Assembly (NCBI RefSeq): GCF_004010195.1 | Contig: NC_057757.1 | Span: forward strand, 2,503,292-2,555,262 | Direction: 5' to 3' | Length of the DNA: 51,971 nucleotides | Source of the DNA: Chiloscyllium plagiosum | Lineage: Eukaryota | Part shown: in pieces, positions 5,390 to 51,210 of the stretch | Numbering within the stretch: the first letter of the stretch is position 1 | Layout: each line of letters starts with the position of its first letter | Position numbers and translations under genes: made by a program | Notes under the pieces: model-generated | Databases searched by the model: none | Seen by the model: only the letters and a program-made list of their open reading frames with translations | Told to the model about the DNA's origin: nothing

Positions 5390-5579
5390 GGAGAAAGTGA
5401 GGGCTGCAGATGCTGGAGATCAGAGCTGAAAANNNNNNNNNNNNNNNNNNNNNNNNNNNNNNNNNNNNNNNNNNNNNNAAGCCTGATTCCTGAAGAAGGG
5501 CTTATGCCCGAAACGTCGATTCTCCTGCTCCTTGGATGCTGCCTGACCTGCTGCGCTTTTCCTGCAACACATTTTCAGC
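5390..5579. mobile_element. Short Penelope-derived fold-back insertion with a hammerhead motif (family A)
   Basis: TSD ttttat[a/c]aggacta at 5376-5389 and 5580-5593; motif ttc-CTGAAGA-A-GGGC-ttat-GCCC-GAAACGTC-ga at 5487-5520; internal N gap. Confidence 0.8.
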
Positions 5580-6409
5580 TTTTATCAGGACTATCCAAGT
5601 TCTTCACTCCCACAACTTTGGAAGTTAGAGGGAAACTTACAGAGCTGCCATAAGTGAGGCTTATGTAGAGATACATAAAAGAGGAGATTTCACTTGGAAT
5701 GGGTCTGCTTCATTAAAGCGTAGAGCTTATTTAAAAGGGGCAACTATTCTTGAGCTCTCAAAGTGTTGAACCCTCAGAGAATGTGAATTTTGATAAGAGT
5801 ACACATGTACAGGATGGTGAAGAGTTAGAACTGGGGGGGGTGGAGGAAACGTAATGTTTTTGGTTTGAATGCAAAACGAAAATGCATTTTTGTTTTGCGG
5901 GATGGTGCTCCCCAGCAGCAAATTCTGGTTGTGTTTTTGCGTATGTGAAAGGCACTATACAAATGCAAGTCGTCCTATTTATTTCCGTACAGTCACATTA
6001 ATACGGGTGTTTTGATTCGAGTTCCGGTTTTGTGTTTGGTACTGGATTGTGGGTTAAAATCCTAGAGTTCGTTTTCTCTCTCTTTCTCTCTCACATGTAC
6101 ACAGTACCCTTAACCACATGTTGATTCAAGATGGCGTCTTCACGTCAGCAGTTGGTGGGAGAGTGGGCTGAACCAGGGACATCCACTTCCACAAAAGACA
6201 GAGAAAGAAGCTTCATAGGAAGAAACACACGTTTTAGTTCTCTTTAGGAATCAAAGTTCAAGAAAGTTGAAAATAAAATAAAAACCACACAATGACTTTG
6301 CAAGATCTCAGTGGGCATGTCGACATCTTTAGAGAGAAGGAAGCAGAGTTAAGGGTACCCTTTTATCAGAACTGGGAGAATTCAAGATTGGACAGAGATT
6401 TTAAGCAAG

Positions 6410-6613
6410 TCAAAAGTGAAACAACTGCTGATGCTGTAGATCAGAAACGAAAAGCAGGAATTGCTGGAAAAGCTCAGCAGGTCTGGCAGCATCTGCGGAG
6501 AGAAAGCAGTGTTAAGGTCAAGTGAGGTTCTGAGGAAGGGACACCGGACTGAAATGTTGAGCCTGATTTCTCTCCACAGATGCTGCCAGACCTGCCGAGC
6601 TTTTTCCAGCAAC
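6410..6613. mobile_element. Fold-back Penelope-like tail element (family related to A)
   Basis: Inverted arms ttgctggaaaagctcagcaggtctggcagcatctgcggagagaaa / tttctctccacagatgctgccagacctgccgagctttttccagcaa; decayed motif gttCTGAGGAaggg...GAAATGTT. Confidence 0.7.
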
Positions 6614-6894
6614 GGCCTGGCTTCTCTATCCTCCCAGACTGTGGGAGTGAATTCCACATTTCTGTGACTTACTCAAATTTCACCTTCCGCTTTTATCATG
6701 GATCACTAAAGCCTCCGCATCCCAGTCCAGCCTCCATCCTGTGATTGACCCAGAATCACAGAAACCCAACGCCATTTGACTTGTGTTGTGGTTGTGTGGT
6801 ACTGGACTATGGGTCAAAGTCCTGGGGTTCTCTCTCTCTCTCTCCAACACACACACACACGGTGCTGTTTACCACACGGCAATTCACGTCAGGC

Positions 6895-7195
6895 CCACAC
6901 CCACACTCCCTGCGTTTCCCGTGGCTAACCCACCCAACCCGAACACGATGGGACAGTGTAGCACGGCCAATCCACCCTAACCTGCACATCCCTGGGCACT
7001 ATGGGACAATTTAGTACGGCCAATCCACCCTAACCTGCATATCCATGGATAGTGGGAGGAAACTGGAGCACTCAGAAGAAACCCACGCAGACACGGGGAG
7101 AACATGCAAACTCCACACGGTCACCCCAGGCTGGAATCGAACGTGGGTGCCTGGTGCTGTGAGGCAGCAGTGCTAACCACTGAGCCACCGTGCTG
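6895..7195 (-). mobile_element. HE1/V-SINE with 2-3 copies of the 53-bp unit
   Basis: Reverse complement of cacggtggctcagtggttagcactgctgcctcacagcaccagg and of the V-domain. Confidence 0.9.
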
Positions 7196-7917
7196 GAGTC
7201 CTCCAGCTCCTGTGGCAATGTGCACTTTTTATTGGTGTGCAGTAGCTGTGGACAGTGATGATCGAGACTCCAAGCCCTTTGAATCATGTTTCCAATATCC
7301 TGCTGTTCCCTCCTGGAAGTATTTACAAATCAGTTTGCAAACTGTTTAATAGAGACACCTTTTTTTGAAAATCATTCATTTGCAAGATGTGGGGGGATCA
7401 CTGACTAGGCCAGCGTTTATTGCCCATCCCTAATTGCCCAGAGGACAGGTGAGAGTCAACCCCATTGGGTGCAGGTCTGGAGTCACATGTAGGCCAGACC
7501 AGGTAAAGATGGCAGTTTCCTTCCCTTCAAGGCCAGGTAAATTTTCCCTCCAACAATAGTCACCATTAGACTCTTAATTCCTTTTTTTTTACCCTTGAAG
7601 CTGAATTCAAATTGCACCATCTGCCGTGGTGGGATTTGAACCGAGCTCTCCAGAACATGAGCTGGGTCTGTGGATTAAAGTCCAGCAACAATACCACTAG
7701 GCTATTGCCTCCTTCTGGGATACCAGGTACAGGACTTGAGGCAGAGATGGTACGTACTGAACCTCAGGACCAGTTTCTCCCGAGAGCTATAATCTCTCTG
7801 TGACCATCCTTGTAAAAAGTTACATCGCATCTTCCCTGGTGTGTGTGAGTCCTAGTTTAATACAGTCAAGACCAAACCGCTTTGGTGAGAAGGACAGGCA
7901 AAGAACATAATTACTAA

Positions 7918-8779
7918 ATTAAAAACCACCCAACACCAGGTTATAGTCCAACAGGCCTATTTGGAAGCACTAGCTTTCGAAGCACTGCTCCTTCATCAGG
8001 AGGTTGTGAAGAATAAGGTCATAGACACAGAATTTCTAGCAAAAGTTTACAGTGAGATGCAACTGAAATGATGTATTGAACAAACCGGGATTGTTGTTAA
8101 TGGGTTGCAGATTTTGGTTCATTAATACGTAAATCCCAGAATTACTTTCCAGTCACATTCTTGAGATAACTTAAGATTTTATATAAAAAAAACTCTCATG
8201 CACACACTCCCATGCTCTCTCCCTCCCCCTGCCCCTCACATGCACACACACAAACACATAAGTCTATGGGGTGAATTTGCATTTGCAAATACATTTTTTT
8301 TTATCAAAAAGTACACAACCTGCAGGCGGTCAATCCATGTAACATTTTATAATTTCCTACTTTGGAAATAGAACCAGTCGGACTCAAGACTGGGATACAG
8401 ACAGATCCTAACCTCACACCTTTAATACATTGTCTGAGCCGAGATGTTCCTTTTTTGTAATAAAACCTTATGTTATCTCGAGAATGTGACTTTAAAAAAG
8501 TTCTGGGATTTGCATATTAATGAACCAAAATCTGCAACCCATTCTAAAAGATGAAAGACTTAACAGCAATCCAGGTTTGTTCAATATATTGTTTTAATTG
8601 CATGACACTATGATCTTTTGCTGTACATTCTGGGTCTTATGATCCTGCCCCACTAGTTACCTGATGAAGGAGCAATTCTCCGAAAGCTAGTGCTTCCAAA
8701 TAAAGCTGTTGGACTATAACCTGGTGTTGTGTGATTTCTAACTTTGTCCACCCCAGACCAACACCAGCTCCTTCACATT
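7918..8779. mobile_element. Penelope-like terminal-repeat element with ~270-bp inverted arms (family B), one hammerhead motif per arm
   Basis: 7921-8180 is the reverse complement of ~8462-8738; motifs CTGATGA-A-GGAGC-agt-GCTTC-GAAAGCTA-gtg (7968-8002, minus) and CTGATGA-A-GGAG-caatt-CTCC-GAAAGCTA-gtg (8658-8692, plus). Confidence 0.8.
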
Positions 8780-8944
8780 ATAATGATTAAGGTGAACTTA
8801 TCTTTGTCGAATCTGATGTGGTGAGTTCCCTGTATGATACAGTCTTCCCAACTTGGCCATGTTCTGTCATGGGAAAAGCTTAGGTGAAATCGGGCTGAGA
8901 TTGTCTTACAACCCCGAAAGAATGCAAGTAAAGTTGACAACTTT

Positions 8945-9799: not shown

Positions 9800-10815
9800 G
9801 TTATGCAGAAAGCATAAGGGACTGTCAGAGAATACAGGAGGATATAGATAGACTGGAGAGTTGGGCGGAAAAGTGGCAGATGGTTTTCAATCCAGACAAA
9901 TGTGAGGTGATGTGTTTCAGGCAAGACTATTTCTCGAGCGAATTATACAATGAACGGGAGAGCCTTGGGAAAAGTTGATGGGCAGAGAGACCTGGGAGTG
10001 CAGGTCCACTGTACCCTGAAGGTTGCTGCACAGGTAGATAGAGTTGTCAAGAAGGCATATGGTATGCTTGCCTTCATTGGACGGGGTATTGAGTACAAGA
10101 GCTGGCAAGTCATGTTAACATTGTACAAGACATTCGTTTGGCTGCATTTAGAATACTGTGTACAGTTCTGTTCACCTCATTACCAAAAGGATGTGGACGC
10201 ATTGGAGGGGGTGCAGGGAAGGTTTACGAGGATGTTGCCTGGAGGGGATGGTGCTAGCAATGAAGAAAGTTGAGTAGGTTTGGTTTATTTTCATTAGAAA
10301 AAAGGAGATTGAGGGGGAACCTGATTGAGGTTTATAAAATCATGAAGGGTACAGACAGGGTGGATAGAGACAAGTTTTTTCCCAGGGTGAAGGATTCAAT
10401 AACGACAGGTCACGCTTTCAAGGTGAGAAGTGGAAAGTTTAAGGGGGGGATACACGCGGCAAGTACTTCACACAGAGTGGTGGGCGTTTGCAACGCATTG
10501 CCAGCAGAGATGGTAGAGGCAGGCACGGTAGATTCATTTAAGATGTAGGTTTGCTCCCTGAGCTGTAGGTTTGATATCCAGACGTTTCATTACCTGGCTA
10601 GGTAACATCATCAGTGGCGACCTCCAAGTGAAGCTACAAACCTTCACAAACCTTGCAAGATTCATTTAAGATTCGTCTGGATAAATGCATGAGTAGGTGG
10701 GGAGCAGAGGGATACGGATGCTTAGGAATTGACCGACAGGTTTCGACAGTACATTTGGATCGGCTCAGGCTTGGTGGGCTGAAGGGCCTGTTCCTGGGCT
10801 GGAAATGTTCTTTGT
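9800..10815 (+). mobile_element. CR1-clade LINE fragment (divergent subfamily) interrupted at 10545-10657
   Basis: QRDLGVQVH..LKVAAQVDRVVKKAYGMLAFIGRGIEYKS..LEYCVQF.SPHYQKD. Confidence 0.9.
10578..10617 (-). ncRNA. Minimal type I hammerhead ribozyme motif (family C), intact core
   Basis: Minus strand reads CCA-CTGATGA-T-GTTACCT-agcc-AGGTAAT-GAAACGTC-TGG: stem I CCA/TGG, 7-bp stem II, ACGT palindromic stem III, GUC cleavage triplet. Confidence 0.75.
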
Positions 10816-11259: not shown

Positions 11260-12260
11260 TGAACAAAGAGACCTTGGAGTGCAGGTTCATAGTCCCTTGA
11301 AAGTAGAGCCGCAGTGGACAGGATCGTGAGGGAGGCGTTTCGTATGCTTGCCTTTCTTGGTCAGCCCATTGGGTATAAGAGTTGGAAAGAGTAAATGAGG
11401 AGTGATGAAGGGCCTATGTCCGAAATGTTACCTCTCCTGCTCCTCGGATGCTGCCTGACCAGCTGTGCTTTTCCAGCACCACACGTTTTGACCTTATAGG
11501 AGCTGGGAGGTCATGTTGTGACTGTACAGGACATTAGTTAGGCCACATTTGGAATTCAGTGTTCAATTCTGGTCTCCCTGCGGTAGGAGGGATGTTCAGA
11601 AACTTGAGAGAGTTCAGAAACAATTTACGAGGATATTGCCGGGGTTGGGGGGTTTGAGCTATAAGGAGAGGTTGAATAGGCTGGGGCTGTTTTCCCTGGA
11701 GCATTGGAAAATAAGGGGTAACCTTACAGTCAAGGTCTTTTTTCTCAGGTTAGGGGAGTCCAAAGGGGATTCACTAGAATGATACCAGGAATGAGATCTT
11801 TTAGATACAGGGGAAGACGAGAACCATAGAGTCGTACAGCTACCATAGCAACAAACATTTTTTACGCAGTTATACAGCACGGAAACAAACCCTTCAGTCC
11901 AACTCCTCCATACCGTCCAGATATCCCAACCCAATCTAGTCCCACCTGCCAGCACCCGGCCCATATCCCTCCAAACCCTTCCTATTCATACACCCATCCA
12001 AATGCCTCTTAAATGTTGTAATTGTACCAGCCTCCACCACATCCTCTGGCAGCTCATTCCATACACGTACCACATCCTCTGCGTGATAAACTTGCCCCTT
12101 AGGTCTCTTTTATATCTTTCCCCTCTCACCCTAAACCTATGCCCTCTAATTCTGGACTCCCCCACCCCAGGGAAAAGACCTTGCCTATTTACCCTATCCA
12201 TGCCCCTCTATAAGGTCAGCCCTCAGCCTCCGAGGGTCCAGGGAAAACAGCCCCAGCCCT
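11260..12260. mobile_element. Two CR1/HER1 LINE fragments (+ ~11260-11860, - ~11870-12260); family A tail inserted at ~11386-11494
   Basis: RT C-terminal motifs on both strands; insert flanked by tataagagttgg / tataggagctgg. Confidence 0.85.
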
Positions 12261-12872
12261 GTGTTACAATAATGGACAGTGTTGATTTGACCGCTTGTAA
12301 CTTGCCTTTTGTTTTCCTGTGATATAATCACCTTCCTGTTAGTCCCTGCAAATATTCAATTCCGTGTTTGAATAAACTCACACATTCTTTGCCCCTGCCA
12401 CCCGTTTAATCAGACCACACTCACTAACGTGAGTCCAGTGACGGGATCAGGGGGTTGATGGGTGATCTGGGCTACCTAAGTCCGGATTCTCATCCTGATG
12501 AAGGCCTTATGCCCGGAACGTCGAATCCTCCTGCTCCTCGGGCACTGCCTGACCTGCTGCGATTTTCCAGCGCTACGCTCTCTCGACCTCAGAGTGTCAG
12601 CGGTGTACTGATCCCACAAAACCAGAACTCCCTCCGCCCAGGTCCCTGCGAGGCTGCAGTGCAAACCACCAAGCAGCCGAAATGTGGTCAGACCAATGAT
12701 CTGTGGAGATGGAGCGCCCCGTCCTCACCCTGCTTTTCGAAAGCTCGCGTTTCGCCACTTTGCTTTTTATGAAAGACCAACATATTATGAAAGTACCTGT
12801 TCTTGCTAACCTAAAGAAATACAAAGAGGATGTTCGCTTTTCTGAGAAAAGGTGAAATTTTTCCCCGTATGA

Positions 12873-13610
12873 GCGGCACGGTGGCTCAGTGGTTAGTGCT
12901 GCGGCCTCACAGCACCAGGGTTCTGGGTTTGATTACAACTTAGGTGTCTGTCTGTGTGGAGTTTGCACACTCTCGCTGTGTCTGCATGGGTTTCCTCCCA
13001 CAGTCCAAAAATGTGCAGGTTAGGGTGGATTGGCCGTGCTAAATTATCCCATAATGCCCAGGGATGTGCAGGTTAGGGTGGATTGGCCGTGCTAAATTGT
13101 TCCATAGTACCCAGGGATGTGCAGGTTAGGGGGGATTGGCCGTGCTAAATTGTCACATAGTGTCCAGGAATGTGCAGGTTAGGGTGGATTGGCCATGCTA
13201 AATTGTCCCATAGTGTCCAAGGATGTGCAGGTTAGGGTGGATTGGCCATGCTAAATTGTCCCATAGTGTCCAGGGATGTGCAGGTTAGGGTGGATTGGCC
13301 ATGCTAAATTGTCCCATAGTGCCCAGGGATGTGTAGGTTAGGGTGGATTGGCCGTGCTAAATTGTCCCACAGTGCCCAGGGATGTGCACGTTAGGGTGGA
13401 TTGGCCATGCTAAATTGTCCCCTAGTGTCCAGGGATGTGCAGGTTAGGGTGGACTGGCCGTGCTAAATTGCCCATAGTGTTAGGTGTGCTAGTCAGGGGT
13501 AAATATAGGGTAGGGGGAATGAGTTTGGGTGGGTTACTCTTTGGAGGGTCAGTGTGGACTTGTTGGGCCGAAGGGCCTGTTTCCATTCTGTAGGGAATCT
13601 AATCTAATCA
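12873..13610 (+). mobile_element. Full-length HE1/V-SINE with an internal 53-bp array (~13010-13480, ~9 copies)
   Basis: Head gcggcacggtggctcagtggttagtgctgcggcctcacagc; tail gggccgaagggcctgtttccattctgtagggaatctaatctaatc. Confidence 0.93.
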
Positions 13611-15329: not shown

Positions 15330-16300
15330 CAATGAACGATTATTCCAATGGTGAAAGATTGCAGCGTGCCGCAGTGCAGAGGGAGCTGGGAGTCCTTGTG
15401 CATGAATCACAGGAAGTTGGTTTGCAGGTGCAGCAGGTAATTAAGAAGGCAAATGGAATAGTGTCCTTCATTGCTCAAGGGATGGAGTTTAAATTAGAGT
15501 GGTGCTGGAAAAGCACAGCAGGTCAGGCAGCATCCGAGGAGCAGGAAAATCGACATTTCGGGCAAAGGCCCTTCATCCTTCCTGATGATGAGTGTTTGCC
15601 CGAAACATCGATTTTCCTGCTCCTCGGATGCTGCCTGACCTGCTGTGCTTTTCCAGCACCACTCTAATCCAGACTCTGGTTTCCAGCATCTGCAGTGCTT
15701 ACTTTTGCCTGAATGGAGTTTAAAAACAGGGAGGTCATGCTGCAGCTGTATAGGGTGCTGGGGAGGCCACACCTGGAGTACTGTGTACAGTTTTGGTCTC
15801 CTTACTTGGGAAAGGATGTCCTGGCACTGGAGGGGGCGCAGAGGAGGGTCATTAGGTCGATTCTGGTGTTGAGAGGGTTGGCTCATGAGGAGGGATTGAA
15901 CAGACTGGGACTATACTCATGGGAATTTCGAAGCATGAGTCGGGGGGATCTTAGAGAAACATATGAAATGATGAAGGGATTAGAAGCAGGGAGGCTGGTT
16001 TCACTGGTGGGTCAACTAGGGGGCATCGGGGGGGGGGGAGATGATTTGGGACTGAGTTCAGGAGGAAATTCTTCACCCAAAGGGCTTTGAATCTGTGGAA
16101 TTCCCTGCCCAGGGAAGTAGTTGAGGCTACCCCATTGAATGTTTTTAGATAGATTTTGGAACAGTAAAGGAATGAAGGGTTAGGGTGAGCGGGCGGGAGA
16201 GAGGAGCTGAGTCCATGAAAAGATCAGCCATCTTATTGACTGGTGGAACAGGGCTCAAGGGGCCAGGCGGCCTACTCCTGCTCCTATTTCTGACGGTCTT
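15330..16300 (+). mobile_element. CR1-clade LINE fragment interrupted by a fold-back family A element (15494-15712)
   Basis: QVQQVIKKANGIVSFIAQGMEFK|MEFKNREVMLQLYRVLGRPHLEYCVQFWSP; 12-bp TSD atggagtttaaa at 15482-15493 and 15713-15724. Confidence 0.9.
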
Positions 16301-18710: not shown

Positions 18711-19272
18711 AATGTCTTTGACCACACCCTGGACACGTTCTGTGATCGTCAGGGGTCGGAATGGCTCTCGAACCCTAAGACATCTGATACTCTGATCACA
18801 GCTCCACGCGGCCTCTGAACACCTTGACACAATTTCCGAAGGGCCAATAATCGCATTGTAATGTTAGAGCATGCCATCCAGGTCCTTGGCATTAGCTCTA
18901 TTCAGTCACGCCATGCCCTAGTGGTATTATCACTAGAATATTAATCTAGAAACGCAGCTAATGTTGCAAGGACCACAGTGGATGGTGGAATTTGGTTTCA
19001 ATAAAGAATTCTTTTTTCTCTTTATTCATTCACAGGATGAAGGCGTCAATGGCCAGGGCAGGATTCATTGCCCCAAAGGGCAGTTAAGAGTCAACCATGT
19101 TGCTATGGGTCTGGAGTCACATGTAGGCCAGACCAGGTAAGGATGGCAGCTTCCTTCCCTAACTGGTGGACCAGATGGGGTTTTCCCCTTGCCAGCTGGC
19201 AATGGATTCATGGTTATCATTGGATTCTTAATTCCAGACATTTAGTGAATTCAAAATCCACCATCTGCCAGG

Positions 19273-19448
19273 AGAAAGTGCGGACCGGAGTTGCTGGAGA
19301 TCAGAGTCGAGAGTGCGGTGCTGGAAAAGCGCAGCATCCGTGCAGCAGGAGCAGCCTCATTCCTGATGAAGGACTTATGCCTGAAGCATCGATTCTCCTG
19401 CCCCTCAGCTGCTGCCTGGCCTGCCGTGCTTTTCCAGCATCACACCTG
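19273..19448. mobile_element. Fold-back family A insertion inside a SINE
   Basis: Perfect 14-bp TSD caccatctgccagg at 19259-19272 and 19449-19462; decayed motif CTGATGAaggacttatgcctGAAGCATC. Confidence 0.85.
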
Positions 19449-20366
19449 CACCATCTGCCAGGGTCAAGGATTTGAACCCAGGACCTCACGAACATTACCT
19501 GGGTCTCTGGATTAACAGTTCAGCAATAATACCGTTAGGCCATCACCACGAATCCATTGGAATAATCCATCTGTTCACTAATCCCCTTTAGGGATGGAAA
19601 TCTGCCATCCTTACCTGTGGTCTGGCCCATATGTAACTCTAGGCCCACAGCGATGTGATGGTCTCTTAACTGCCCTCTGAGCCATTAGGGATGGGCAATA
19701 AATGCCAGGCATAGGCAGCGATGCCATCATCCAGTGAGTGAATAAAGGAAAAGGAAATGATGTCTGATTGAATGGATACTGAGCTTCCTCCCCGCTTAAG
19801 GAAGGCGCTTGATTGACAGGAAGATAAAAGAAGGATTTCAAAGGTTCCCCTGAAGAAATGCAATGTCGTCATCAATGTGTGGGAGACCCTTGTTCAGAAG
19901 AAACTGTCTCAGAGGGAGCTCCTGTACATGGAGACGCAATTCTTCAAGAGAGAGAGTCCTTGGCAAGGGACAGTATGGAAAAGAAACTTGAAAACAGGAA
20001 TGCCAGGGATCTCAGGGCTAAGGATGGACTCCACCTCCCGGAAACACCGAAGGTGTGGTTGGAGGTATGGGTCTGGGATCAGCCACACCCAGAGGCCGTG
20101 GCCAGTGAGGTGGAACTTCCCAGGTCAATAACCATTCTCATTGGCCAGCGATTGCTAAAGGTGACAAAGGCAAAATCGCTGTAGTCCCCATTACAGCGAG
20201 CGATGACTGGTGGCGGTTTAACCGGAGGGTCACCAAGCTCCAGATGAGGGGAGGGGTTGAGAAGGAGAGTCCTGCGTGGTAACCCCAACCTATGCTAGGA
20301 TTGAACCCAGTGCGTTGGCATCACCAACAGAGCTAAGTGACTCCAGGCAGGTGGGTGGGGTGCATT

Positions 20367-21150
20367 AGGCAAAAGTGAGGACTGCAGATGCTGGAGGTCA
20401 GAGTCAAGATTAGAGTGGTGAGCAGGTCAGGCAGCATCTGAGGAGCAGGAAAATCAATGTTTCGGGCAGGAGCCCTTCATCAGGAATGACGCTGGGAACT
20501 TCCAGGGTGGAGAGATAAATGGGAGAGGGGTGGGGCTGGGGAGAAGGTAGCTAAGAGTGCAATAGGTAGATGGAAGTGGGGATAAAGGTGATAGGCCGGA
20601 GAGGAGGGTGGAGCAGATAGGTGGGAAGGAAGATTGTCAGGTAGGACAGTTCATGAGGATGGTGTTGAGTTAGAAGGTTGGAACTGGGGTAAGGGGGGGG
20701 GGGGGGGAGGGGAAATGAAGAAACTGGTGAAGTCCAAATTCATGCCCCGGCAGAAGTAAAGGTGTTCTTCCTCCAGGCATTAAGTGGTGAGGCAGCAGCG
20801 GTGGAGGAGGCCCAGGACCTGCATGTCCTTGGTAGAGTGGATGGGGGCGTTGAAATGTTCAGCCACGGGGCAGTGGGGTTGATTGGTGCGGGTGTCCCAG
20901 AGATGTTCCCTAAAGCGCTCTGCGAAAAGGCATCCAGTCTCCCCAGTGTAAAGGAGACCACACCGGGAGCAACGGATACAATAAATGATATTTGTGGAAG
21001 TGCAGGTGAAACTTTAATGGATCCTTGCGTTCCTTTGGAACACATTGTGAGCGTCGACTTGGGGTGGGATCCCCAGCAGCAGGTGGCGATGGTGAGGCAG
21101 GAGGAGGAGTGGCTGGATCAGTCAAATGGAGAAAGAAAGAGCGTCTTTGG
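20367..21150 (-). mobile_element. 5'-truncated Penelope-like element: GIY-YIG endonuclease remnant plus family A tail
   Basis: Minus strand reads FTCTSTNIIYCIRCSRCGLLYTGETGCLFAERFREHLWDTRTNQPHCPVAEHFN; downstream is CTGATGA-A-GGGC-tcct-GCCC-GAAACATT (20453-20487) and the tail ccagcatctgcagtcctcacttttgcct. Confidence 0.85.
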
Positions 21151-36475: not shown

Positions 36476-39018
36476 ACCGTTAGCACTTAAATGCCAGTTA
36501 TTCACCTCTATCTTGTGGCCAAAGTAGATGACGTTTCTCATTTGACCTTGTCTAAGGTAGAGCTTTGAGTAGTGCTGAGTAAGTGGTGACTTACTGGAAT
36601 AAATCACCGAGAGCATTAGCCCTATAACTCACTTGTGTTGCAGAAAATGGTTAGGTTCTTTGACCTGACTTTGGAAAGGTTCATTTTCCAATAATGTCCT
36701 GTGTCTCATATTCTGTAATTAAACACAGCCTGACTCCAGGTGCACAGGGTAGCTTACTACTGCAGAGCACTTTGAATCTAAAATATTTACACCCCTTAAT
36801 ATTTCATGCTGGAGCAGGACATATTCATCACTCCCAACTAATTTGCAATTCCACTTAATCCTTTTAGTGCTCAGAGCTGCTGGTGTTGACAGGCATCTTT
36901 TCTTCATTCATTTAGGGGTGAGGATATTGCTGGCTGGGCCCAGCATTTATTGTCCATTCCTAATTGCTCAGAGAGCAGTTAAGAGTCAACCACATTGCTG
37001 TGGGTCTGGAGTCACATGTAGGCCAGAGCAGGTCAGGATTTGGGTCAAACGCAGACAAGTGAAACCAGTTCAGTTTGGGAAACCTGGCTGGCATGGACGA
37101 GTTGGGCCGAAGGGTCTGTTTCCTTGCAGTATGACTCTATGACCTAATCATAAGATGAAAGATGACATGGCGCACAGACCGATGGGCTGAACGGCCCGTT
37201 TTTGTGCTGTGCATCTTGAGTAATGTCATCCGATGCAAACCCACAGAACAAGAAATGCTAAAGGATGTTAATGACTGGATGGGTTTTTCCCAACAATCGA
37301 ATCGGGCTCATTATTTAGACTCTTAATTCCAAATTGTTGTTGGATTCAAATTCCACCATCTGTTTTGGCGAGATTTGAACCTGGGTCCACAAACATTACC
37401 TGGGCCTCTGGAGAAATAATGCAGTGAAAATACCACTAGACCACCACTGCCTCATATGCAACACTGAGGGAGGCCATTTGGCCCATCATGTCTGAAATAG
37501 CTCTTTGTCAGAGCTGTTCAGTTAGTATCAAGCCACTCCTGCTCCTGCCCCAGGTATTTTTCCAAGTTCCCGTGTGGAATCTGCCTCCACCGTTATTTCA
37601 GGCAGTGCCTTCCACATCTCACCAACCTGTTATTGTTTGTTGAATAAATAACCTTTAATGATCTTTTGAAGTGTTCAAAAGAGGCACTTGAATGGAGACT
37701 CTCACTGATGACTGATACTGTTGTGCAGTTTTCAGCGTTGCTGTGATTTTATAAATCGAGGTTCAGACAATGCTTCAAGCACACAGCAGCTGAATAGAAT
37801 ATCCTGTTCAGTATTCACTGTGGGGGGGCGGGGTGCCGGAGTAAGTTGGAACAACCAATTGTTGCTTCTGCTTCTGAGCCAGGCCCAACATTTCTTGTTC
37901 CGTGGCTTTGCATCAGATTGCCTTACACAGGGTATACAGTCCAGAAACAGGCAGTACCATCTGTCTGTGCTGGTGTCTGTACTCCGTGTCCTCTTTCACC
38001 TTATTACTACGTCATACAGCATGGAAGCAGACCCTTCGGCCCAACTCGTCCATGCCAACCTGGTTTCCCACATTGAGCTAGACCCACTTGCCTGCGTTTG
38101 GTCGATATCCCTCTAAACCTTTCCTATCCAGGTGCCTTTTAAATGTGGTAACTGTACCCACCCCCGCAACTTCCTCTGGCAGCTCATTCCATCCACCACC
38201 ACCCTCTATGTGAAAAAGTTACCCCTCAGGTCCTTTCTTAATCTTTCCCCTCTCCCCTCTAGTTTTGCACTCCCTTACCCCGGGGGAAAGACCTTGACTA
38301 TTCACCTTATCTACTCCCTTCTAGTTCTTTCTGCTGTGTGTAGTTATCCAGCTTCCCCTCCAATATGTCTGTGCTCTCCACCCCAACTGCTCACTATGGT
38401 GAGAGTTCCACTTCCTCAGCACCACTTGGGTAAACAGGGTTCTCCTGGGGGATTTATTAGTGACTCTTTTCCATTTATGGATTCGTTGTTATAACCTCTC
38501 ATTTTTGGCATCATCCCTGTAAATCTTTCCACCTGACATTGATTTGATTTCTTACTGTCACGTGTACCGAGGTACTGTGAAAAGTGTTGCCTTGTGTGCT
38601 GGAGAGACCGATCGTACCGTACAAAAGTCATCAGGGTGGCAGAATGTTATAGCTGCAGAGAGAGAGATCAGAACTAACGTTAAAGAGGTCCATTCAAAAG
38701 TCTGATAACAATGGGGAAGAAGCTGTTCTTGAATCTGATGGCACATGTATGCAAACTTTTGTATCTTCTGCCTGACAGAAGACAGCATAAGCCGGCTGGG
38801 AGGGGTCTTTGATGATGTGCTTTCCCGAGGCAATGGCAATTGGGCTTGCAGTAGATACAGTTGGCTCTGTCCAAGTCATAGCACTGACCAGGCCCCCTTC
38901 ACTGCAATGCCCTGAATCTGTCGATTGCCATCTGTTGGACTCCAATTTGGCCTTTTAAGTCTACTTTTATTAGTTACGGTTGGTTGACAATGCCTTGATG
39001 CCGTCCACCAAGATTTTG

Positions 39019-39321
39019 ATTTTGAGGTGCCGGTGTTGGACTGGGGTGTATAAAATTAAAAATCACCCAACACCAGGTTGTAGTCCACCAGGTTTATTCT
39101 GAAATCAACATGGTCATTCTAAAAGATGAGAGACTTAACAAACAATCAATATATTGATCTTACAATATATAATTTCCGTTACATCACACTGTAAACTCTT
39201 GCTAGAAATCCTGTGCCTTATGATTTTATTCTCCACAACCGCCTGATGAAGGAGCGTCTCTCCGAAAGCTAGTGCTTCCAAATAAACCTGTTGGACTATA
39301 AGCTGGTGTTGGGTGATTTTT
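39019..39321. mobile_element. Family B Penelope-like insertion with an intact + strand hammerhead motif (39240-39274)
   Basis: TSD accaaga[t/g]tttg at 39007-39018 and 39322-39333; cgc-CTGATGA-A-GGAG-cgtct-CTCC-GAAAGCTA-gtg; inverted terminal segment. Confidence 0.82.
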
Positions 39322-40672
39322 ACCAAGAGTTTGGTCACCTTTCCAGAACGTCTCCTCGTGTGGCTCAGTGTCCAGCCTCGTTTGGTAATCGCTCCCACAA
39401 AGAGCCACGAGAAGATCTTCCTTTGTTGAAAGGCACTACATAAATGTAGAGTGTCGGCTGAATGGCTGGTTTGCCACACCAATAGCGTGGGTCCGATTCC
39501 CGCGCCTGCTCAGGTTACTGTGACGGTCCTGACTTCTCACCCTGTCCCATCGCCATGAACCCTCAGGTTAAACCACCACCTTAAAGAGAGAGCAGCCTCT
39601 GGTCCTCTGCAGGAGGGAGGGGGTACAATGATGGCTTTCCCTTTCTTAGATTAGATTCCCGACAGTGTGGAAACGGACCCCTTGGCCCAACAAGACTGGG
39701 GTGACTGACAATACCAGCCTTTCCCACGGGCAATAAGTGGGCAAATTCCAAATTCTGGTTTCATTAAGGACAAGGTCTACTTTTCAATCTGTTTTGCTGA
39801 TTCCCTTAAGAATATACATTTCAGGCACCAATCATCCAAACCCTTTGCATCAATATTGTTGGATGTTAGCGGACAGCACATTGGCAGCTGCAATTCAGAT
39901 CCTCAGTTGCACCTTTACAAATCACAGCTAAGCTGGAACCACAAACCTATTATGTTGGGATTACTGCTTTTAATCTGCTGCAAAACGTTACTTCAAGTTT
40001 CTGATTTACTTTTAGAGCATTGGCAGCCATTTTACTGCTTGGGGTTACGGAATTATCGGCGGGTTAGGGTGCGGAAGGGTTGGAGAGTTACGACGTGGAA
40101 AGATTGAAGAGTTGGGGTGGGGGGCAGGTGGCTCCGAGAGTCAGGGCGGGGGAAGGTCGGGGAGCCGAGAGGGTGGGAACGTCAGTGAGCCGGGGCGCAT
40201 CCAGGCAAGTGGGGAGTATCCGCTCGCATTCCTGACCTGTGGGACAGGCTTCGGGGAGTTACTTGCTGCAGGATTCCCAGCCTCTGACCTGCTCTTGTGG
40301 CTGCTGTGTTTATGTGGTTAGTCCAGTTGAGTTTCTGGTCAACAGTGACCCTCAGGATGTGGTGGGGGTGGGGGTTTCAGTGATGGTAACGCCATTGAAT
40401 GTCAAGAGGCGGTGGTTATTGTCTTATCAGCGATGGTCATAGCCTGGCATTTGTGTTCCTCAAAGAGCATTCAAAAGGAAGAGCTGGTGATGGGGGGGGG
40501 GGTGGAGGTTGGAGTGCCTTATGGAGCAATAGCTTGAGCCTGGGGCCTAGTTGGTGGTAGGCCCAGGCTCCCTGTGGTAGAGCACTTAAAATTAGAGCAA
40601 GGGATCACAGAGGACCAGTGGAGAAGGGTACCTCATGCAGGAGGGGCTTGAAATTGAAGTGGACTGCATGGG

Positions 40673-40799
40673 GAATGAAGGGCTTTTGCCCGAAACCTCG
40701 ATTTTCCTGCTCCTCGGATGCTGCCTGACCTGCTGTGCTTTTCCAGCACCAATCTAATCTAGACTCTGCTTTCCAGCATTTGCAGTCCTTGTTTTTACC
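40673..40799 (+). mobile_element. Family A tail insertion truncated within the hammerhead core
   Basis: TSD ctgcatggg at 40664-40672 and 40800-40808; atgaagggcttttgcccgaaac. Confidence 0.8.
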
Positions 40800-44306: not shown

Positions 44307-44695
44307 TGTGGTTCTGTTCGCCGAGCTGGGAGTTTTTGTTGCAAACGTTTCGTCCCTTGGCTAGGCGACATCATCAGTGCTTGGGAGCCTGCTGCGAAGC
44401 GCTTCTTTGATGTTTCCTCCGGTGTTTATAGTGGTTTGTCCCTGCCGCTTCCGGTTGTCAGTTTCAGCTGTCCGCTGTAGTGGTTGGTATATTGGGTCCA
44501 GGTCTATGTGTTTGTTGATGGAGTTTGTGGATGAATGCCATGCCTCTAGGAATTCTCTGGCTGTTCTCTTTCTGGCTTGCCCTATGATAGTAGTGTTGTC
44601 CCAGTCGAATTCATGTTGCTTGTTGTCTGCGTGTGTGGCTACTAAGGATAGCTGGTCGTGTCGTTTCGTGGCTAGCTGATGTTCATGTATGCAGA
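44307..44695 (-). mobile_element. Penelope-like element 3' end (GIY-YIG C-terminal half) with a hammerhead motif
   Basis: IHEHQLATKRHDQLSLVATHADNKQHEFDWDNTTIIGQARKRTAREFLEAWHS; GCA-CTGATGA-T-GTCGCC-tagccaa-GGGAC-GAAACGTT-TGC at 44341-44380 (minus). Confidence 0.88.
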
Positions 44696-44709
44696 TCAAC
44701 ATACATGTT

Positions 44710-47170
44710 GATCCCTAAACGTTGTAACTGTACCTGCATCCACCACTTCCTCAGGAAGTTTGTTCCACACACGAACCACCTGTGGCTACTAAGGATAGCT
44801 GGTCGTATCGTTTCGTGGCTAGTTGATGTTCATGTATGCGGATCAACATACATGTTGATTCCTAAACGTTGTAACTGTACCTGCATCCACCACTTCCTCA
44901 GGAAGTTTGTTCCACACACGAACCACCCCCATGTAAAATAAATATAGCCCCTCGTGTCTTTTTTTAAATCTCTCCCTTCTCACCTTAAAAATATACCCTG
45001 AATCTTGAAATCCCACACCCTAGGGAAAAGACACCTGCCATTTAGCTTATCTATACCCCTCATGGTTTTATTTTATTTGGTTTAAAAAAAACAGAAAGAT
45101 CAGAGCAGGAGTCGGCCATTTTGAGCTTGCTCTGCCGTTCCGTGAGACCATGGGTGAACTTCTAACACAGTACATTGTTCGAGCTTCCTCCCTGTATCCT
45201 TTCGCCCTAAGAACTATATTTATCACCACCTTGAAAGCATTCCATGGTTTGGTCTCCACTTCCTGTGGCAGAGGATTCCACAGGCTCCCCACTCTCTGGA
45301 TGAAGGCATTTCATCCCCTCTGACGCCTGCTTCTGCACTTCCCGGTTATCAGGAACATCCTGCATTTAACCTATCTAGCCCTGTTAGAACGTTATAGGTT
45401 TCTATGAGAACTCCCTCGGTTTTCTGAACCCCGGTGAATATAGTCCGAACCGATCCAGTCTCTCGTCCTGTGTCAGTCCTGCCATCCCAGGAATCAGTCT
45501 GCGAAACCTTCGCTGCATTCCTTCCCTTGCCAGAGCATCCTCCTTCAGATAACTGCTCCCAGTATTCCACGTTGGATCTCACTAAGGTCCAGTACAATAG
45601 CAGCACGATATCCCTGCTCCAATATGCAAATCCTCTTGCTACGAAGGCTACCATAAAGTATACCACTTTCAGTGGCTGCTGTACAAAGGTCTTGTTGCAC
45701 CTTCCTGTTTCTCAGTCACGTAAGAATCTGCCTTCCTGTTTTTTGCTACCAAAGTGGATAACCTCACATTTTGTTTGGTGGACAGATTCACAAGGCCGGC
45801 AGTGTGCCGGGCTTCCCCTGAGAGAGCCCTATTTCCGCAGGTGCTTTCGATTTGCCTTGCTTTGCAGGCCTCAAGGGGAATTCATTCATCGGCACAGAAC
45901 AGTGAATGCCGATGGACAGATTAACCCCAGGAGCCAGCGCCACGTATAATGTGGGACAACATCTCGAAGCCTCCCCAACTTACTTTGCCTGGTTATCGGT
46001 CAGTTCATGAAACCTCCGGCCTCTCGATATTGTAGCGAGGCCAAAACTGCTGTAATGTTGCGAGGAAGTGGGACAGGTCAGAAAAGAAAGCACGCTGTAG
46101 GTGTGGAGACTTTAGGTAATTGATAAACTTCTCCCTGCCTCCAATTGGCCCTGTGTTTTGGGGGATAAGTGTAAGGGAGATGTGCGTGGAAAGTTCTTTA
46201 CGCAGAGGGTGGTGGGTGCCTGGAATGCGTTGCCAGCAGAGTTGGTAGGGGCAGGCACAATAGCGTCATGTATCTAGACAGATACCTGTATAGGCAGGGA
46301 ACAGAGGGATACAGATCCTTAGAAAATAGGCAGCAGGTTTAGATAGAGGATTTGGATCGGCACAGGCTTGGAGGGCTGAAGGGCCTGTTCCTGTGCTGGA
46401 ATCTTCTTTGTGCTTTGTGGTTTCCCTAATTTGTACACTTTTGGAAAGGCTGTAATGGGATCCTTTTTGAGAGCACATATAAATCAGAGAGACCGAGGGA
46501 TTCAGGTACATAATTCTTGGATGTTTGTGTCACATGTAGAGAGGGTGGTTAAGAGGACATTGAGCACGCTTGCCTTCGTTGCTCAGCCCTTTGCATATAG
46601 GAGGTGGGATGTCATGTTGAGGTTGTACAGGACATTGGTGAGGCCTCTTCTGGAGAACTGTCTCCAGTTCTGGTCGCCCTGTTAAAAGAAAGACAATATT
46701 AAACCGGAGAGGGTTCAGAAAAGATTTACCAGGATGTCACTGGGACTGGAGTGTTTGAGATATAAAATTGGACTGGAAAGACTGGAAACTTGTTCACTGG
46801 AGCATAGGAGGTTGAGGGATGACTTGATAAAGTCATGAGAGGCGCAGATAAGATGAATAACAAAAGTCTTTTCCCTAGGGTGGAAAGTTCAAAACTGAGT
46901 GGCCTATTTTTAAGGTGAGAGGAGAAAGATTTAAAAAGGACGTGAGGGGTGACTGTTTTTTACACAGCGAGAGGTTTGTATGTAGACTGAACCGTCGGAG
47001 AAAGTGGTGGATGTGGGGACAGTTGCAACGTTTAAAAGACATTTGAATAGGGAAGGTTCGGAGGGAGATGGGCCAGGAGCAGGCAGGTGCGCCTAGTTTA
47101 GTTTGGGATTATGGTCGGCACAGACTGGTTGGGCCGAAGGGTCTGTGTTTCCGTGCTGTGTTACTCTAAA
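44710..47170. mobile_element. Cluster of decayed CR1-clade LINE fragments (- ~44710-45770; + ~46160-46410 and ~46460-47170)
   Basis: RT C-terminal motifs such as RWDVMLRLYRTLVRPLLENCLQFWSPC and SLWNPLPQEV. Confidence 0.8.
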
Positions 47171-47809: not shown

Positions 47810-49322
47810 GCAGGTTTTGAGCAGATTTGTAGCTCACATTGAAGTTCTGGATGTAGGTTTGCTCGCTGAGCTGGAAGGTTCGTTTTCAGACATTTCGTCA
47901 CCATATTGGGTAACATCTTCAGTGAGCCTCCGGGTGAAGCACTGGTGGCAAGGCCCGCTTTCTATTTATGTTAGGTTTCCTTGGGCAGGTAATGTCACTT
48001 CCTTTGGTGACGCCATTTCCTATGGTGACATCATTTCCGGTTCTTTTTGTCAGGAGGTGGTAAATGGGTTCCAAGTCAATGTGTTGTTGACAGAGTTCCA
48101 GCTGGAATGCCATGTTTCTAGGAATTCTTATGTGTGCCTCTGTTTGGCTTGTCCTAGGATGGAGGTGTTGTCCCAGTCGAAGTGGTGTCCTTTCTCATGC
48201 GTATGTAAGGATACTAGTGAGAGAGAGTCATGTCGTTTTGTGACTAGTTGATGTTCATGTATTCTGGTGGCTAGTTTTCTGCCTATTTGTCCAATATAGT
48301 GTTTGTTACAGTTCTTGCATGGTATTTTGTAAATGACATTAGTTTTGTTTGTCTGTATAGAGTCTTTCAAGTTCATGAGCTGCTGTTTTAGTGTGTTGGT
48401 GGGTTTGTGGGCTACCATGATGCTAAGGGGTCTGAGTAGTCTGGTAGTCATTTCAGTCTGACCACATACTGAACTACAGAAGCAATCATCCCAACACCCA
48501 CAAACAAAGTTGTATTAGAACATTATTTCAATGAGTCACCACACACTGCAGCACACAGGAACTACAAAGAGCAGAGGAAAATCACCTATACAGCGTATTC
48601 AAAAAGAACAGGTAACTAATGAACACAGTCCGCTGATTTCTCTCAGCAACAAACCCAAACAAGCAGACAAAACACGTCCAGAAACCCTAGCCACTCTCCC
48701 CTACATCGAAGATATCTCGGAAATGACTGCCAGACTCCTCAGACCCCTTGGCATCATGGTAACCCACAAACCCATCAACACACTAAAACAGCTGCTAATG
48801 AACTTGAAAGACTCTATACAGACAACAAACAAAGCTAACTTCATTTACAAAATACTGTGCAGGAACTGTAACAAACACTACATTGGAGACAGACAGGCAG
48901 AAAACTAGCCACCAGGATACATGAACATCAACTAGCCACAAAACGACATGACCCACTATCACTGGTATCCTCACATACAGATGAGGAAGGACACCACTTC
49001 GACTGGGACAACACATCCATCCTAGGACAAGCCAAACAGAGACACTCATGAAAATTCCTAGAAGCATGGCATTCCAACTGGAACTCTATCGACAAACACA
49101 TCGAGTTAGTCCCCATCTACCACCCCAAGAAAAAGAACAGGAAGTGACTTCACCGCAGGAAATAACATCACCACAGGAAATGACATCACCAACCCAAACA
49201 TATAAATGGAAAGCAGGAATTTTCAGCATTGCTTCGCCTGAGGCCCACTGAAGATGGTACCTAGTAGGGTAATGAAACGTCTGGAAATGAGCCTATCAGC
49301 TCAGTGAGCAAACCTACATCCA
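47810..49322. mobile_element. Inverted (head-to-head) pair of Penelope-like GIY-YIG element 3' halves (family C)
   Basis: Minus 47810-48455 and plus 48456-49322 both encode NVIYKIPCKNCNKHYIGQ..RKLATRIHEHQL; the plus copy carries CCA-CTGAAGA-T-GGTACC-tagtag-GGTAAT-GAAACGTC-TGG at 49245-49284. Confidence 0.9.
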
Positions 49323-49329
49323 TCGTGTC

Positions 49330-49575
49330 ATGCTTCCCAAGCTTTTTGTCTTGCATTCATCAGGACAAATGCACGAATGCCAATTTTTAAATGATTGCAA
49401 CAGTGTAACTTCTTGTCATCAGGGAAAGCGTAAGAAGCAGATTTTATCAAATTGCAGAGCAGTTTTGAGGGCACCCTCCTCCTAATTTATGAGTATTCGA
49501 CGTGCAAATTGTTTGAAGTTTGGCATTCTTGCACATGTCCTGATGAACGCAAGACTGAAAGCTTCAGTCATGTTT
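49330..49575. mobile_element. Short inverted-repeat element with decayed hammerhead-like motifs (family D)
   Basis: aagctttttgtcttgcattcatcaggacaaatgcacgaatgccaa is the reverse complement of ttggcattcttgcacatgtcCTGATGAacgcaagactGAAAGCTTC; related fragment at ~5320-5352. Confidence 0.65.
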
Positions 49576-49710
49576 TCAGCCACATTCAAGAGTTCTGTGC
49601 TGCAGAATGACGTCTGAATGTCTTTCCATGATGCCCTTGCTGTGGTACAGAATTGACAGCATGCCTTGTGGGGCCCGTGTATCTGAGTTTCTGTTTCTCT
49701 TGTTCTCCAG

Positions 49711-49806
49711 GCTACAGTGGAGGAGCCGATAATTCACAACGATGAAGTTATCTTTCCGCTGTCAGTGGCTCTGGACAAGCTTCCGGTGGGAACCATAAAG
49801 GCAAAG
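49711..49806 (+). CDS. TRAPPC14: TRAPPC14 coding exon 2
   Basis: Acceptor tttctcttgttctccag|gct and donor aag|gtgaga; ATVEEPIIHNDEVIFPLSVALDKLPVGTIKAK versus recalled human LPVEEPIVSTDEVIFPLTVSLDRLPPGTPKAK; phase 0 matches exon 1. Confidence 0.93.
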
Positions 49807-49970
49807 GTGAGAGACTTAATTGTCTGCGAGATGGGTGCGTGTCAGAGCCAGCCCCTCTTTCTGAATATATGCAGGTCTCGCACTCACTCCTCAGAAATGT
49901 ATCCCCCCCCCACCAGCACAGTTCAGGGGCTGGTTGTAGAACTGGTCTATACCTGTCCAGAATAGAGTGG

Positions 49971-50525
49971 AAACTGCTGAAAATGTGTTGCTGGAAAAGC
50001 TCAGCAGGTCAGGCAGCATCCAAGGAACAGGAGAATCGACGTTTTGGGCATAAGCCCTTCAGGAATGAGGAAAGTGTGTCCAGCAGGCTAAGATAAAAGG
50101 TAGGGAGGAGGGACTTGGGGGAGGGGCGTTGGAAATGCGATAGGTGGAANNNNNNNNNNNNNNNNNNNNNNNNNNNNNNNNNNNNNNNNNNNNNNNNNNN
50201 NNNNNNNNNNNNNNNNNNNNNNNNNNNNNNNNNNNNNNNNNNNNNNNNNNNNNNNNNNNNNNNNNNNNNNNNNNNNNNNNNNNNNNNNNNNNNNNNNNNN
50301 NNNNNNNNNNNNNNNNNNNNNNNNNNNNNNNNNNNNNNNNNNNNNNNNNNNNNNNNNNNNCAGCCTTGATCTCCAGCATCTGCAGTCCTCACTTTCTCCT
50401 TGAAGATTTTAACCTACTGCGAATCCTCTTACAAGGATGCCTTCCTTGAAGAAGCTCTCTTCCTCCCTCTACAAGGATTTCAGTGAGTCCCTCTCTCACT
50501 GCACACCCCAGGTCATCTCCTCTGC
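49971..50525. mobile_element. Family A Penelope-like insertion with inverted arm, internal gap and extended 3' tail
   Basis: 14-bp TSD ccagaatagagtgg at 49957-49970 and 50526-50539. Confidence 0.85.
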
Positions 50526-51034
50526 CCAGAATAGAGTGGCCCATACAAAATGGCCGACAGACAAAAGAGAGGCAGCCTACCTTAGAATTAAACACAAGGT
50601 GGCTGAGGGGAGATAAACAAGAGTAACAGTCTGTTCCAGTCTTTAGTTAAAGAAAACAATAACATCTTTGAACAGTACCACTCCCCGGCCATAAGTACAC
50701 GATTCTGAGCAGTTTTGGATAACAGCATTGCGTCATACAGACAAGCGACCAACCCTGACCTTCTGTAATGAAAGAATAATTGTAAATGGAAGATTTACTC
50801 CCTCAGAATGACAGCTAAAGTTATAGTATTTCTTTAGAGTGACTCAGAACGTTAAAAATCAATAGGTTCTAGTTAAAGATGTTTTAGAATCATGGAGATA
50901 GGTTTCAACCTAAAATATATACATCTTACCAACGCTTAGTAAAAGTGTTAAAGAAAAAGCATTTTGATCCAGATGTGAAGTTAACTAGCTTTAGGAAAAT
51001 GGCTTTTTTTATATGCTGAACCAATCAGATTGTT

Positions 51035-51210
51035 GGGCGAAAGTGAGGGCTGCAGATGCTAGAGATTAGAGTCAAGATTAGAGTGGTGCTGGAAAAGCAC
51101 AGCAGGACAGGCAGCATCTGTGGAGCAGGAAAATCGGCGTTTCAGGCAGGAGCCCTTCGTATGAAATCCTGATGAAGGGCCCCTGCCTGAAACGTTGATT
51201 TTCCTGCTCG
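51035..51210. mobile_element. Fold-back family A insertion with an intact + strand hammerhead motif (51166-51199)
   Basis: TSD tcagattgtt at 51025-51034 and 51211-51220; ATC-CTGATGA-A-GGGC-ccct-GCCT-GAAACGTT-GAT. Confidence 0.85.

Follow-up and report, generated by a model that had tools for sequence, protein, structure and literature searches.

Minimal hammerhead motifs in a genomic window of the shark Chiloscyllium plagiosum read as the 3' ends of several Penelope-like element families

Minimal type I hammerhead ribozymes (min-HHRs) were described in 2014 in the Penelope-like elements (PLEs) of metazoans, and an extra nucleotide before stem II, a G10.1-C11.1 pair and a palindrome are among the features listed for them (Cervera and de la Pena, 2014, PMC4209133). 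Minimal hammerheads can cleave as dimers, a result of Lunse et al. cited here through a review (PMC6765202). Endonuclease-positive PLE units are known to contain a head-to-head inverted copy, a tail of 30-40 bp at one end, target duplications of 8-10 bp and a putative TATA box with initiator in the pseudo-long terminal repeat (pseudo-LTR) (Arkhipova et al., 2013, PMC3846280; Craig et al., 2021, PMC8557442), the promoter having been proposed earlier for a rotifer pseudo-LTR (PMC3846280). In PAc, a Poseidon element of the green anole, the open reading frame (ORF) starts at stem II, the tail arises from two internal starts of reverse transcription downstream of the hammerhead, and an uncut RNA serves as template while both target strands are extended (Frangieh et al., 2024, PMC11167929). 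Non-LTR retrozymes are tandem arrays with type I hammerheads related to those of PLE pseudo-LTRs, and one chondrichthyan is among their reported hosts (10.64898/2026.07.22.740005). The present analysis concerns hammerhead-like motifs in a stretch of 51,971 nucleotides of the shark Chiloscyllium plagiosum (the window; assembly GCF_004010195.1, NC_057757.1, 2,503,292 to 2,555,262). Families A, B and C of these motifs are read, with a probability of about 0.9, as the 3' ends (pseudo-LTR and tail) of at least three endonuclease-positive PLE families with minimal type I hammerheads. The same estimate jointly covers the reading of the window copies as 5'-truncated insertions, dead on arrival and mostly broken, and the view that any ribozyme activity belongs to the RNA of source elements, in dimeric form or aided by protein.

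The inventory of motif copies, compiled by hand over the whole window, holds 30 copies or fragments, with a full CTGANGA box in 19, a cut or damaged box in six and no box in five; one further family-B tail fragment (32956-33027) stands outside this count. The minimal type I core (CUGANGA ... GAAA ... UH) is present in window and genome matches alike, and the extra nucleotide before stem II, G10.1-C11.1 and a palindromic 15.1-16.1 segment are found in families A, B and C. Under a strict descriptor requiring the hammerhead core, a stem II of at least 3 bp, the first pair of stem III and a stem I of at least 3 bp, six motifs pass (8658+, 39240+, 51163+, 10617-, 44380- and 47925-), against a mean of 0.05 and a maximum of 1 in 40 dinucleotide shuffles; with one core change tolerated, eight matches are obtained against 0.7 in shuffles (n=10). 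The 6-bp stem I of the 51163 copy is the product of an inversion junction. The remaining 13 of the 19 boxed copies fail, for example through an altered GAAA box (GGAA at 12495, GAAG at 19363, GAGA at 27156, AAAA at 30117), through a broken stem II (15582 and 6530, and at pair 2 in 49248) or a stem I that is lost (27166) or reduced to 2 bp (5490) or 1 bp (7999). Family D (49363, 49540, 5319) does not show the three additional features together, no stem II could be assigned to it from five copies, and it is doubtful as a hammerhead. A preliminary description of this DNA had announced about 20 motifs around a fixed core: its number holds for boxed copies but not for intact ribozymes, and most window copies are broken. 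The 17 places it listed all carry a motif or a damaged copy; among its weaker variants, that at about 6527 is indeed a damaged A3 hammerhead with a broken stem II, while that at about 49537 forms no stem II. A search of the window against Rfam with E values up to 10 gave 15 matches, none of them to a hammerhead family, and inverted pairs score there, below threshold, as microRNA precursors. The main use of the present results lies in repeat annotation and in avoiding false microRNA calls.

Genome-wide, the motif is very abundant. In the 3.56 Gb assembly, a generic intact-core pattern in which pairing is not enforced has 166,323 matches against 246 for the reversed pattern used as control, and the 100 generic matches listed belong to the A, B and C types. 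The exact pattern of one A subfamily has 16,581 matches and the exact intact family-B pattern 14,753, with none in either control. A generic motif at another locus (L036, minus 2802) was rejected as a chance match within another repeat whose relatives lack the core. The window contains five intact-core matches against about 2.4 expected (genome mean 1 per 21 kb; Poisson p of about 0.1), and its motif density is unexceptional for this genome; the density first proposed, one motif per 2-3 kb, fits the boxed copies, of which 52 kb contain 19, but is no local peculiarity. A further subfamily, with stem I AGCT/AGCT and a GAGTC/GACTC-like stem II, occurs outside the window (L071:768-980, L019:2793-2892), also as a head-to-head pair. 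By comparison, about 4,000 motifs were counted in coelacanth and about 9,000 in Xenopus with different descriptors, and no shark figures in the parts of that work covered here or in two of its supplements (PMC4209133); with the present counts, the class described in 2014 includes a shark, where its copy number is very high. Nothing was found on Penelope hammerheads or Neptune- and Poseidon-type elements in sharks, or on hammerhead ribozymes in Chiloscyllium, in the open literature, subscription journals, Repbase and Dfam lying outside the search, and the shark families may already be catalogued in Repbase or Dfam.

Regarding the helices, motif likeness within families is descent, and covariation is informative between subfamilies. 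In 13 hand-picked natural representatives of A-type and C-type subfamilies, chosen by motif (two family-B rows were excluded because MAFFT misaligned them), 89.7% of cells are paired against 62.7% after shuffling and 15-39% with slid partners, and two-sided changes occur at all seven pairs of helices I and II; the helix pairs of family B were read directly from the sequences. Two of five covariation measures, the changed-pair count and the pair-type count, were no better than shuffles (196/500 and 259/500). Helices I and II covary between subfamilies, as had been supposed. The family-A stem I had been given as ATC/GAT; it most often reads ATTC/GATT, in 28 of the 116 listed motifs (the search patterns used had enriched this set), that is, two pairs, a U.U mismatch and then A-U. 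With 2-4 bp and this mismatch in A, stem I is shorter here than in the min-HHRs of PMC4209133, as far as that source is covered.

The assignment to Penelope is borne out by GIY-YIG remnants lying upstream of the motif and in the same orientation in families A and C. Matches to PLE proteins are found in the window at 20792-21058, 44364-44843 and 47876-49294. The family-A remnant (20801-21022, minus strand) precedes the 20483 motif on its own strand by about 320-540 nt, and an equivalent fragment elsewhere (L049) scores 26.5 bits with GIY-YIG against a Pfam cut-off of 22.6. Family-C remnants precede the motif at 48101-48469 (-), 48642-49135 (+) and 44364-44843 (-), and the copy at 44307-44843 represents a second subfamily, distinct from the pair at 47848-49322. 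A 147-bp direct duplication is seen within a family-C endonuclease remnant (44634-44927). For family B, endonuclease-related sequence is found upstream, by similarity, at another locus (L068). Database relatives of all three families combine a reverse transcriptase (RT) with a C-terminal endonuclease (EN), and RVT_1 is above the Pfam cut-off in five of them (P0007, P0008, P0012, P0021, P0039). The named relatives belong to Chiloscyllium, Stegostoma, Hemiscyllium and other sharks, the nearest being from these three genera with identities up to 84-96%, in keeping with the shark origin first suggested. That several distinct lineages coexist is likewise confirmed. The family-B relative P0039 shares 35% identity with the family-A relative P0007 over 651 columns and 26% with the family-C relative P0021 over 421 columns. 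A Cys-rich C-x4-C-x2-C motif is present in the RT-EN linker of A and B relatives (P0001, P0007, P0008, P0039) and was not found in those of family C (P0012, P0015, P0021); since this linker separates Neptune and Nematis from Penelope and Poseidon (PMC8557442, PMC3846280, in the parts covered), A and B look Neptune-type and C Penelope/Poseidon-type. An ATG stands where stem II begins in 4/4 window copies of family C, as in PAc, and in two of them the frame stays open for 24 codons. Several shark gene models (P0018, P0029, P0032, P0045 and P0047, isoforms of MAP3K7, CUEDC2, PPP1R12A-like, septin 5a and XRCC5) include PLE endonuclease fragments, which may reflect exonisation or an annotation artefact.

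A number of observations weigh against this assignment. No full-length element with pseudo-LTR, ORF and pseudo-LTR was recovered from this genome, and the one long frame retrieved, of 1,178 amino acids, was rejected as a run of N. The core RT is not seen in the window, and the link to it rests on the database relatives. Two family-C window fragments have no Pfam match at E 0.01, one reaching GIY-YIG at E 0.07, while the endonuclease fragment linked to family B at L068 has no Pfam match and its link spans an assembly gap. With regard to the ribozyme itself, the dominant family-A stem I has only two contiguous pairs, and the hammerhead is the minimum-energy fold in none of six monomers, being 0.6-6.4 kcal/mol higher; this outcome is expected for minimal hammerheads and says nothing on activity. 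Finally, a target duplication was not seen in five of the eight window pairs.

The anatomy of the insertions was counted over about 300 kb, comprising the window and further loci (six overlapping loci were skipped), on a scale in which 0 is C3 of CUGANGA and the cut site is at +28. The 3' ends cluster near +80 and at +111 to +129 in A, at +85 and +120 in B and at +72 to +74 in C. Copies of families A and B thus terminate preferentially at two 3' positions separated by about 35-45 nt, a signature of PLE tails (PMC11167929, PMC8557442, in the parts covered) that matches the two internal RT starts of PAc; family C, with one group, differs from PAc in the reference used. Most copies measure 90-140 nt and have no coding sequence, and the optional tail of 30-40 nt, the inverted 5'-truncated copy and the 5' truncation are all present among the copies. 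Inverted partners are mostly head-to-head rather than tail-to-tail, with 26 against 5 of 79 copies in family A and 27 against 2 of 49 in family B, and the first 100 genome matches of a B tail word include 19 head-to-head pairs (about 1 expected) and 2 tail-to-tail. Target duplications of 10-12 bp, comparable to those of known endonuclease-positive units, surround three of the eight window pairs, which are therefore single insertions. Unlike those units, most units here are only 170-240 bp long and are joined at the core box of the hammerhead. Following established PLE work, the element protein would nick the target and RT would begin inside the RNA downstream of the hammerhead, giving the tail, while the ribozyme would cleave weakly, as a dimer through its 4-nt palindrome or with the assistance of protein. 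The template of most short copies may have been uncut, starting just 5' of the core, with the complementary DNA (cDNA) running off after 90-140 nt; head-to-head pairs would be two such run-off cDNAs, one per target strand as in PAc, or a single fold-back event.

After insertion, the family-B core decays like its flank. In 19 unselected B copies, 11/190 non-CpG core positions departed from the majority base (5.8%) against 29/673 in the tail (4.3%), which looks neutral, and selection would therefore have acted on the source elements, the only place where the fold is inferred to be kept. Intact cores are retained in 12/19 copies in B and 9/39 in A. The fixed core had been taken as the mark of a conserved RNA structure; this may stand for source elements but not for the window copies. 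When folded as RNA, five inverted pairs gave long hairpins (60-84 pairs, -92 to -156 kcal/mol), and such hairpins would hide the motif in close inverted pairs.

The 5' ends raise a further question, namely where the templates began. In copies gathered by their tail alone and with those at N gaps dropped (A 3/62, B 1/24), 35/59 usable A copies and 10/23 usable B copies end between -15 and +10, whereas the adjoining upstream bin holds 2 and 0 and the region of the cut site 6 and 2; in A1/A2-type copies with long comparators, 29/43 ends fall in the pile-up and one near the cut site. The ends hence concentrate where the core begins rather than at the cut site, with TATA-like boxes about 30 nt upstream of them, and in 11 of the 19 genome pairs of the B tail word the arm 5' ends sum, in an alignment-free estimate, to between -19 and +12. 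In 20/25 long B copies a TATAAA-type box lies at -36 to -40, and 17/19 long A copies, across subfamilies, have a TTAT motif at -34 to -37; the TATA-like boxes of family C are found near -47 to -53. Family A has an initiator-like sequence at -4. Word counts for family B over the genome (tail 76,071, core 47,995, TATA region 22,639, -74 14,913) together with co-occurrence, in which about 38% of core-bearing copies retain the TATA region and about 69% of tail-bearing copies the core, suggest that the steepest loss lies between core and TATA region, although these are soft estimates blurred by subfamily differences. A 3' splice site as the cause of the family-A ends was set aside, with no formal test, as the AG lies at -18 (A1) or -10 (A2) and most ends are nearer the core. 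In the parts covered, the PAc paper reports neither a 5'-end pile-up at the core nor a poly(A) site (PMC11167929).

RNA evidence comes from one raw single-cell poly(A) run, about 2% of which was read and mapped on a natural B copy (L081:1200-1680). Among 3,254 reads, 1,404 carry a poly(A) end 27-30 nt beyond the cut site (+55, +57 and +58), at 1557 (591 reads), 1559 (112) and 1560 (701), 12-15 nt after ATTAAA or AATAAA, and a GU-rich stretch without an A run follows. Some transcripts of the element sense strand thus use B tails as poly(A) sites. Most reads are 90-95% identical to the copy (66 of 3,254 at 99% or more) and therefore stem from many copies; a host origin is possible for them. Read depth ahead of the cut site resembles that spanning it (1,701 and 1,895), with no pile of molecule ends listed, and as the cut 3' piece (about 30 nt plus poly(A)) is likely lost, the cleaved share is not readable from the reads. 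The fall in depth between 1489-1505 and 1472-1488 can be put down equally to an RNA start or to the length of reads counted from the poly(A) end. In family B, the motif is placed between a probable transcription start and a poly(A) site in use; no A[AT]TAAA hexamer was found in the A and C tails examined. The search for earlier work on PLE poly(A) sites, at the level of titles and listings, found nothing.

Two explanations of the 5' ends can be weighed, the first of them compatible with the PLE assignment. It is possible, if tentative, that the pseudo-LTR is organized like U3-R-U5, with RNA starting 4-20 nt before the core and, in B, polyadenylated at +55 to +58. Transcription directed by the upstream TATA-like box would then begin at stem I of the hammerhead itself, and the hammerhead would sit inside a 65-nt terminal redundancy closed by the B poly(A) site. 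The RT starts at +85 and +120 would exist only near the RNA 5' end and yield a short first cDNA, akin to strong-stop DNA, that would have to jump to the RNA 3' end through the 65-nt redundancy; short copies and pairs would be products without the jump. Such a layout accords with the pile-up in A and B, the 11 genome pairs joined near the core start, the spacing of TATA-like boxes in three families with the initiator-like sequence of A, and the 1,404 poly(A) reads. Yet no transcription start was observed in the read data, the hexamer was not found in the A or C tails examined, the coverage drop rests on soft word counts, and the poly(A) reads represent one sample, many diverged copies and possibly host transcripts, a second run of the same sample having given no reads on the B copy and hence no test. 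Drosophila Penelope, moreover, has a TATA-less internal promoter (PMC2377424) and a multi-copy read-through RNA has been proposed for PAc (PMC11167929), in the parts covered. If the layout is true, at least a hundred thousand short or fold-back copies would record failed jumps and preserve PLE reverse-transcription intermediates in nature on a large scale, so that the origin of pseudo-LTRs and inverted ends and the timing of the ribozyme cut could be tested on them; it would also offer a testable route of pseudo-LTR regeneration, for which the covered part of PMC2377424 saw no obvious mechanism. That the pile-up and the pairs instead reflect structure or microhomology, through RT stalling or folding back at the imperfect palindrome of the core box or self-priming on an antisense template, is a possibility of similar weight. 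The piled-up copies are often arms of close inverted pairs (21/35 in A, 9/10 in B), and palindromic head-to-head junctions have been read as antisense-template self-priming (PMC3846280, in the part covered); but better palindromes, namely stem II and ACGT/AGCT, gather few ends (5/59 at +11 to +24), a close inverted arm is lacking in 14/35 A copies of the pile-up, and the TATA-like spacing in three families is left unexplained.

Other readings compete with the PLE assignment itself. Since most copies are 90-140 nt long without coding sequence, and animal retrozymes derived from PLEs include one chondrichthyan (10.64898/2026.07.22.740005, in the part covered), the short copies could form an independent non-autonomous family, like a SINE (short interspersed element) or a retrozyme, spread from short RNAs or circles cut by the hammerhead. 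This is improbable: retrozymes are tandem arrays whereas the copies here are dispersed or inverted, no tandem repeat with a hammerhead per unit was found among the 28 tandem-repeat rows of the window or the loci examined, direct partners are rare (5/79 in A, 3/49 in B), few 5' ends lie at the cut site, and short and long copies share subfamily sequence, with lengths extending into the ORF. Nor does the window hold any direct tandem of two motifs that could serve as dimer partners, all close pairs being inverted. Still less credible is a role of the dispersed copies as host-selected active ribozymes, for instance removing the poly(A) tails from host RNAs that rely on the B signal; the B cut site does precede a poly(A) site in use by 27-30 nt and at least 14,753 copies match the exact intact pattern, but the core decays as fast as the tail (as seen in just 19 copies), motif-hiding hairpins would form from close inverted pairs, and minimal hammerheads had no monomer activity in the part of PMC4209133 covered. 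Chance can practically be dismissed: the core is short and the window has 55 CTGANGA words, but the strict and genome-wide matches far exceed their controls (6 against 0.05, 166,323 against 246) and flanks are shared between copies, so that chance is refuted for A, B and C and only family D remains doubtful. The copies of the window, as they would be annotated under the PLE reading, are given in the table.

Table. PLE-related copies and fragments of the window (positions in the window)
Feature	Position	Strand	Details
Subfamily A3 fragment	4703..4760	-	no CUGANGA box
Family B fragment, old	4985..5096	-	no CUGANGA box
Family D fragment	5319..5352	+	5' half only
Family A (A2)	5486..5586	+	hammerhead and tail; core intact; stem I 2 bp
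Family A (A2) tail	5390-5432	-	across N gap from the + copy; probably head-to-head pair (5390-5586)
Subfamily A3 head-to-head pair	6425..6613		+ arm: damaged hammerhead at 6530
Family B copy	7912..8095	-	intact core (7999); stem I of 1 bp; probable partner of 8494-8764
Family B copy	8494..8764	+	strict pass (8658-8692); upstream TATA-like box mutated
Family C short copy	10542..10634	-	strict pass (10617-10578); ATG at stem II start; element starts ~20 nt before core
Family A short copy	11403..11483	+	5' end within core box
Family A short copy	12493..12571	+	mutated GAAA box
Family A head-to-head pair, joined at core box	15482..15724		long tail on + arm only; 12-bp target duplication (15482-15493, 15713-15724)
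Family A	19271..19444		+ copy 19353-19444, damaged; inverted tail 19271-19336 on -
Family A long copy	20364..21022	-	GIY-YIG remnant 20801-21022; 3' untranslated region; damaged hammerhead 20483; long tail
Family A head-to-head pair	27028..27268		both hammerheads damaged; 12-bp target duplication (27028-27039, 27257-27268)
Family B head-to-head pair	29993..30209		- arm: G12 lost; + arm: core box cut
Family B, tail only	32956..33027	+	
Family B head-to-head pair	39017..39322		+ arm: strict pass (39240-39274), AATAAA in tail
Family A short copy	40675..40799	+	5' end within core box; long tail
Family C (C3)	44307..44843	-	C-terminal endonuclease remnant; TATAAA; strict-pass hammerhead 44380-44341; copy cut by N gap
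Family C head-to-head pair	47848..49322		per arm: endonuclease remnant, TATA-like box, hammerhead (47922 -, 49248 +), tail
Family D head-to-head pair	49339..49564		49363 -, 49540 +; core boxes, no stem II
Family A (A2) copy	49976..50070	-	3-nt deletion in core box; runs upstream toward N gap
Family A head-to-head pair	51025..51220		+ arm passes descriptor only via junction sequence; 10-bp target duplication (51025-51034, 51211-51220)

The copies lie among host genes and other repeats. Two coding exons of a galactose-3-O-sulfotransferase are found at 929-1375 and 2485-3306 on the plus strand (Pfam PF06990) and an N-terminal exon of TRAPPC14 at about 22714-22985, also on the plus strand (PF15806); GAL3ST4 and TRAPPC14 presumably adjoin each other in human. 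Five arrays of a 53-bp unit (2-13 copies; 1678-2380, 6944-7048, 13011-13479, 31091-31516 and 42169-42475) sit within a dispersed repeat and have no hammerhead core. A coding-like repeat is present in many copies, 78-94% alike (13936-14956, 17890-18673, 25684-26440, 27772-28380 and others); one of its frames has no Pfam match, and we assume it to resemble the 3' ends of CR1-type LINEs (long interspersed elements). The end of the family-B tail at 33027 is adjoined by a broken frame on the minus strand (33028-33450), which has no family match and which we take to resemble the Cys/His-rich C-terminus of an L1/Tx1-type ORF2; the arrangement reads as a PLE inserted into the element carrying this frame. 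A tRNA-like match at 28752-28825 (minus strand, 39.2 bits, above the Rfam cut-off) has a broken acceptor stem and is probably the head of a SINE.

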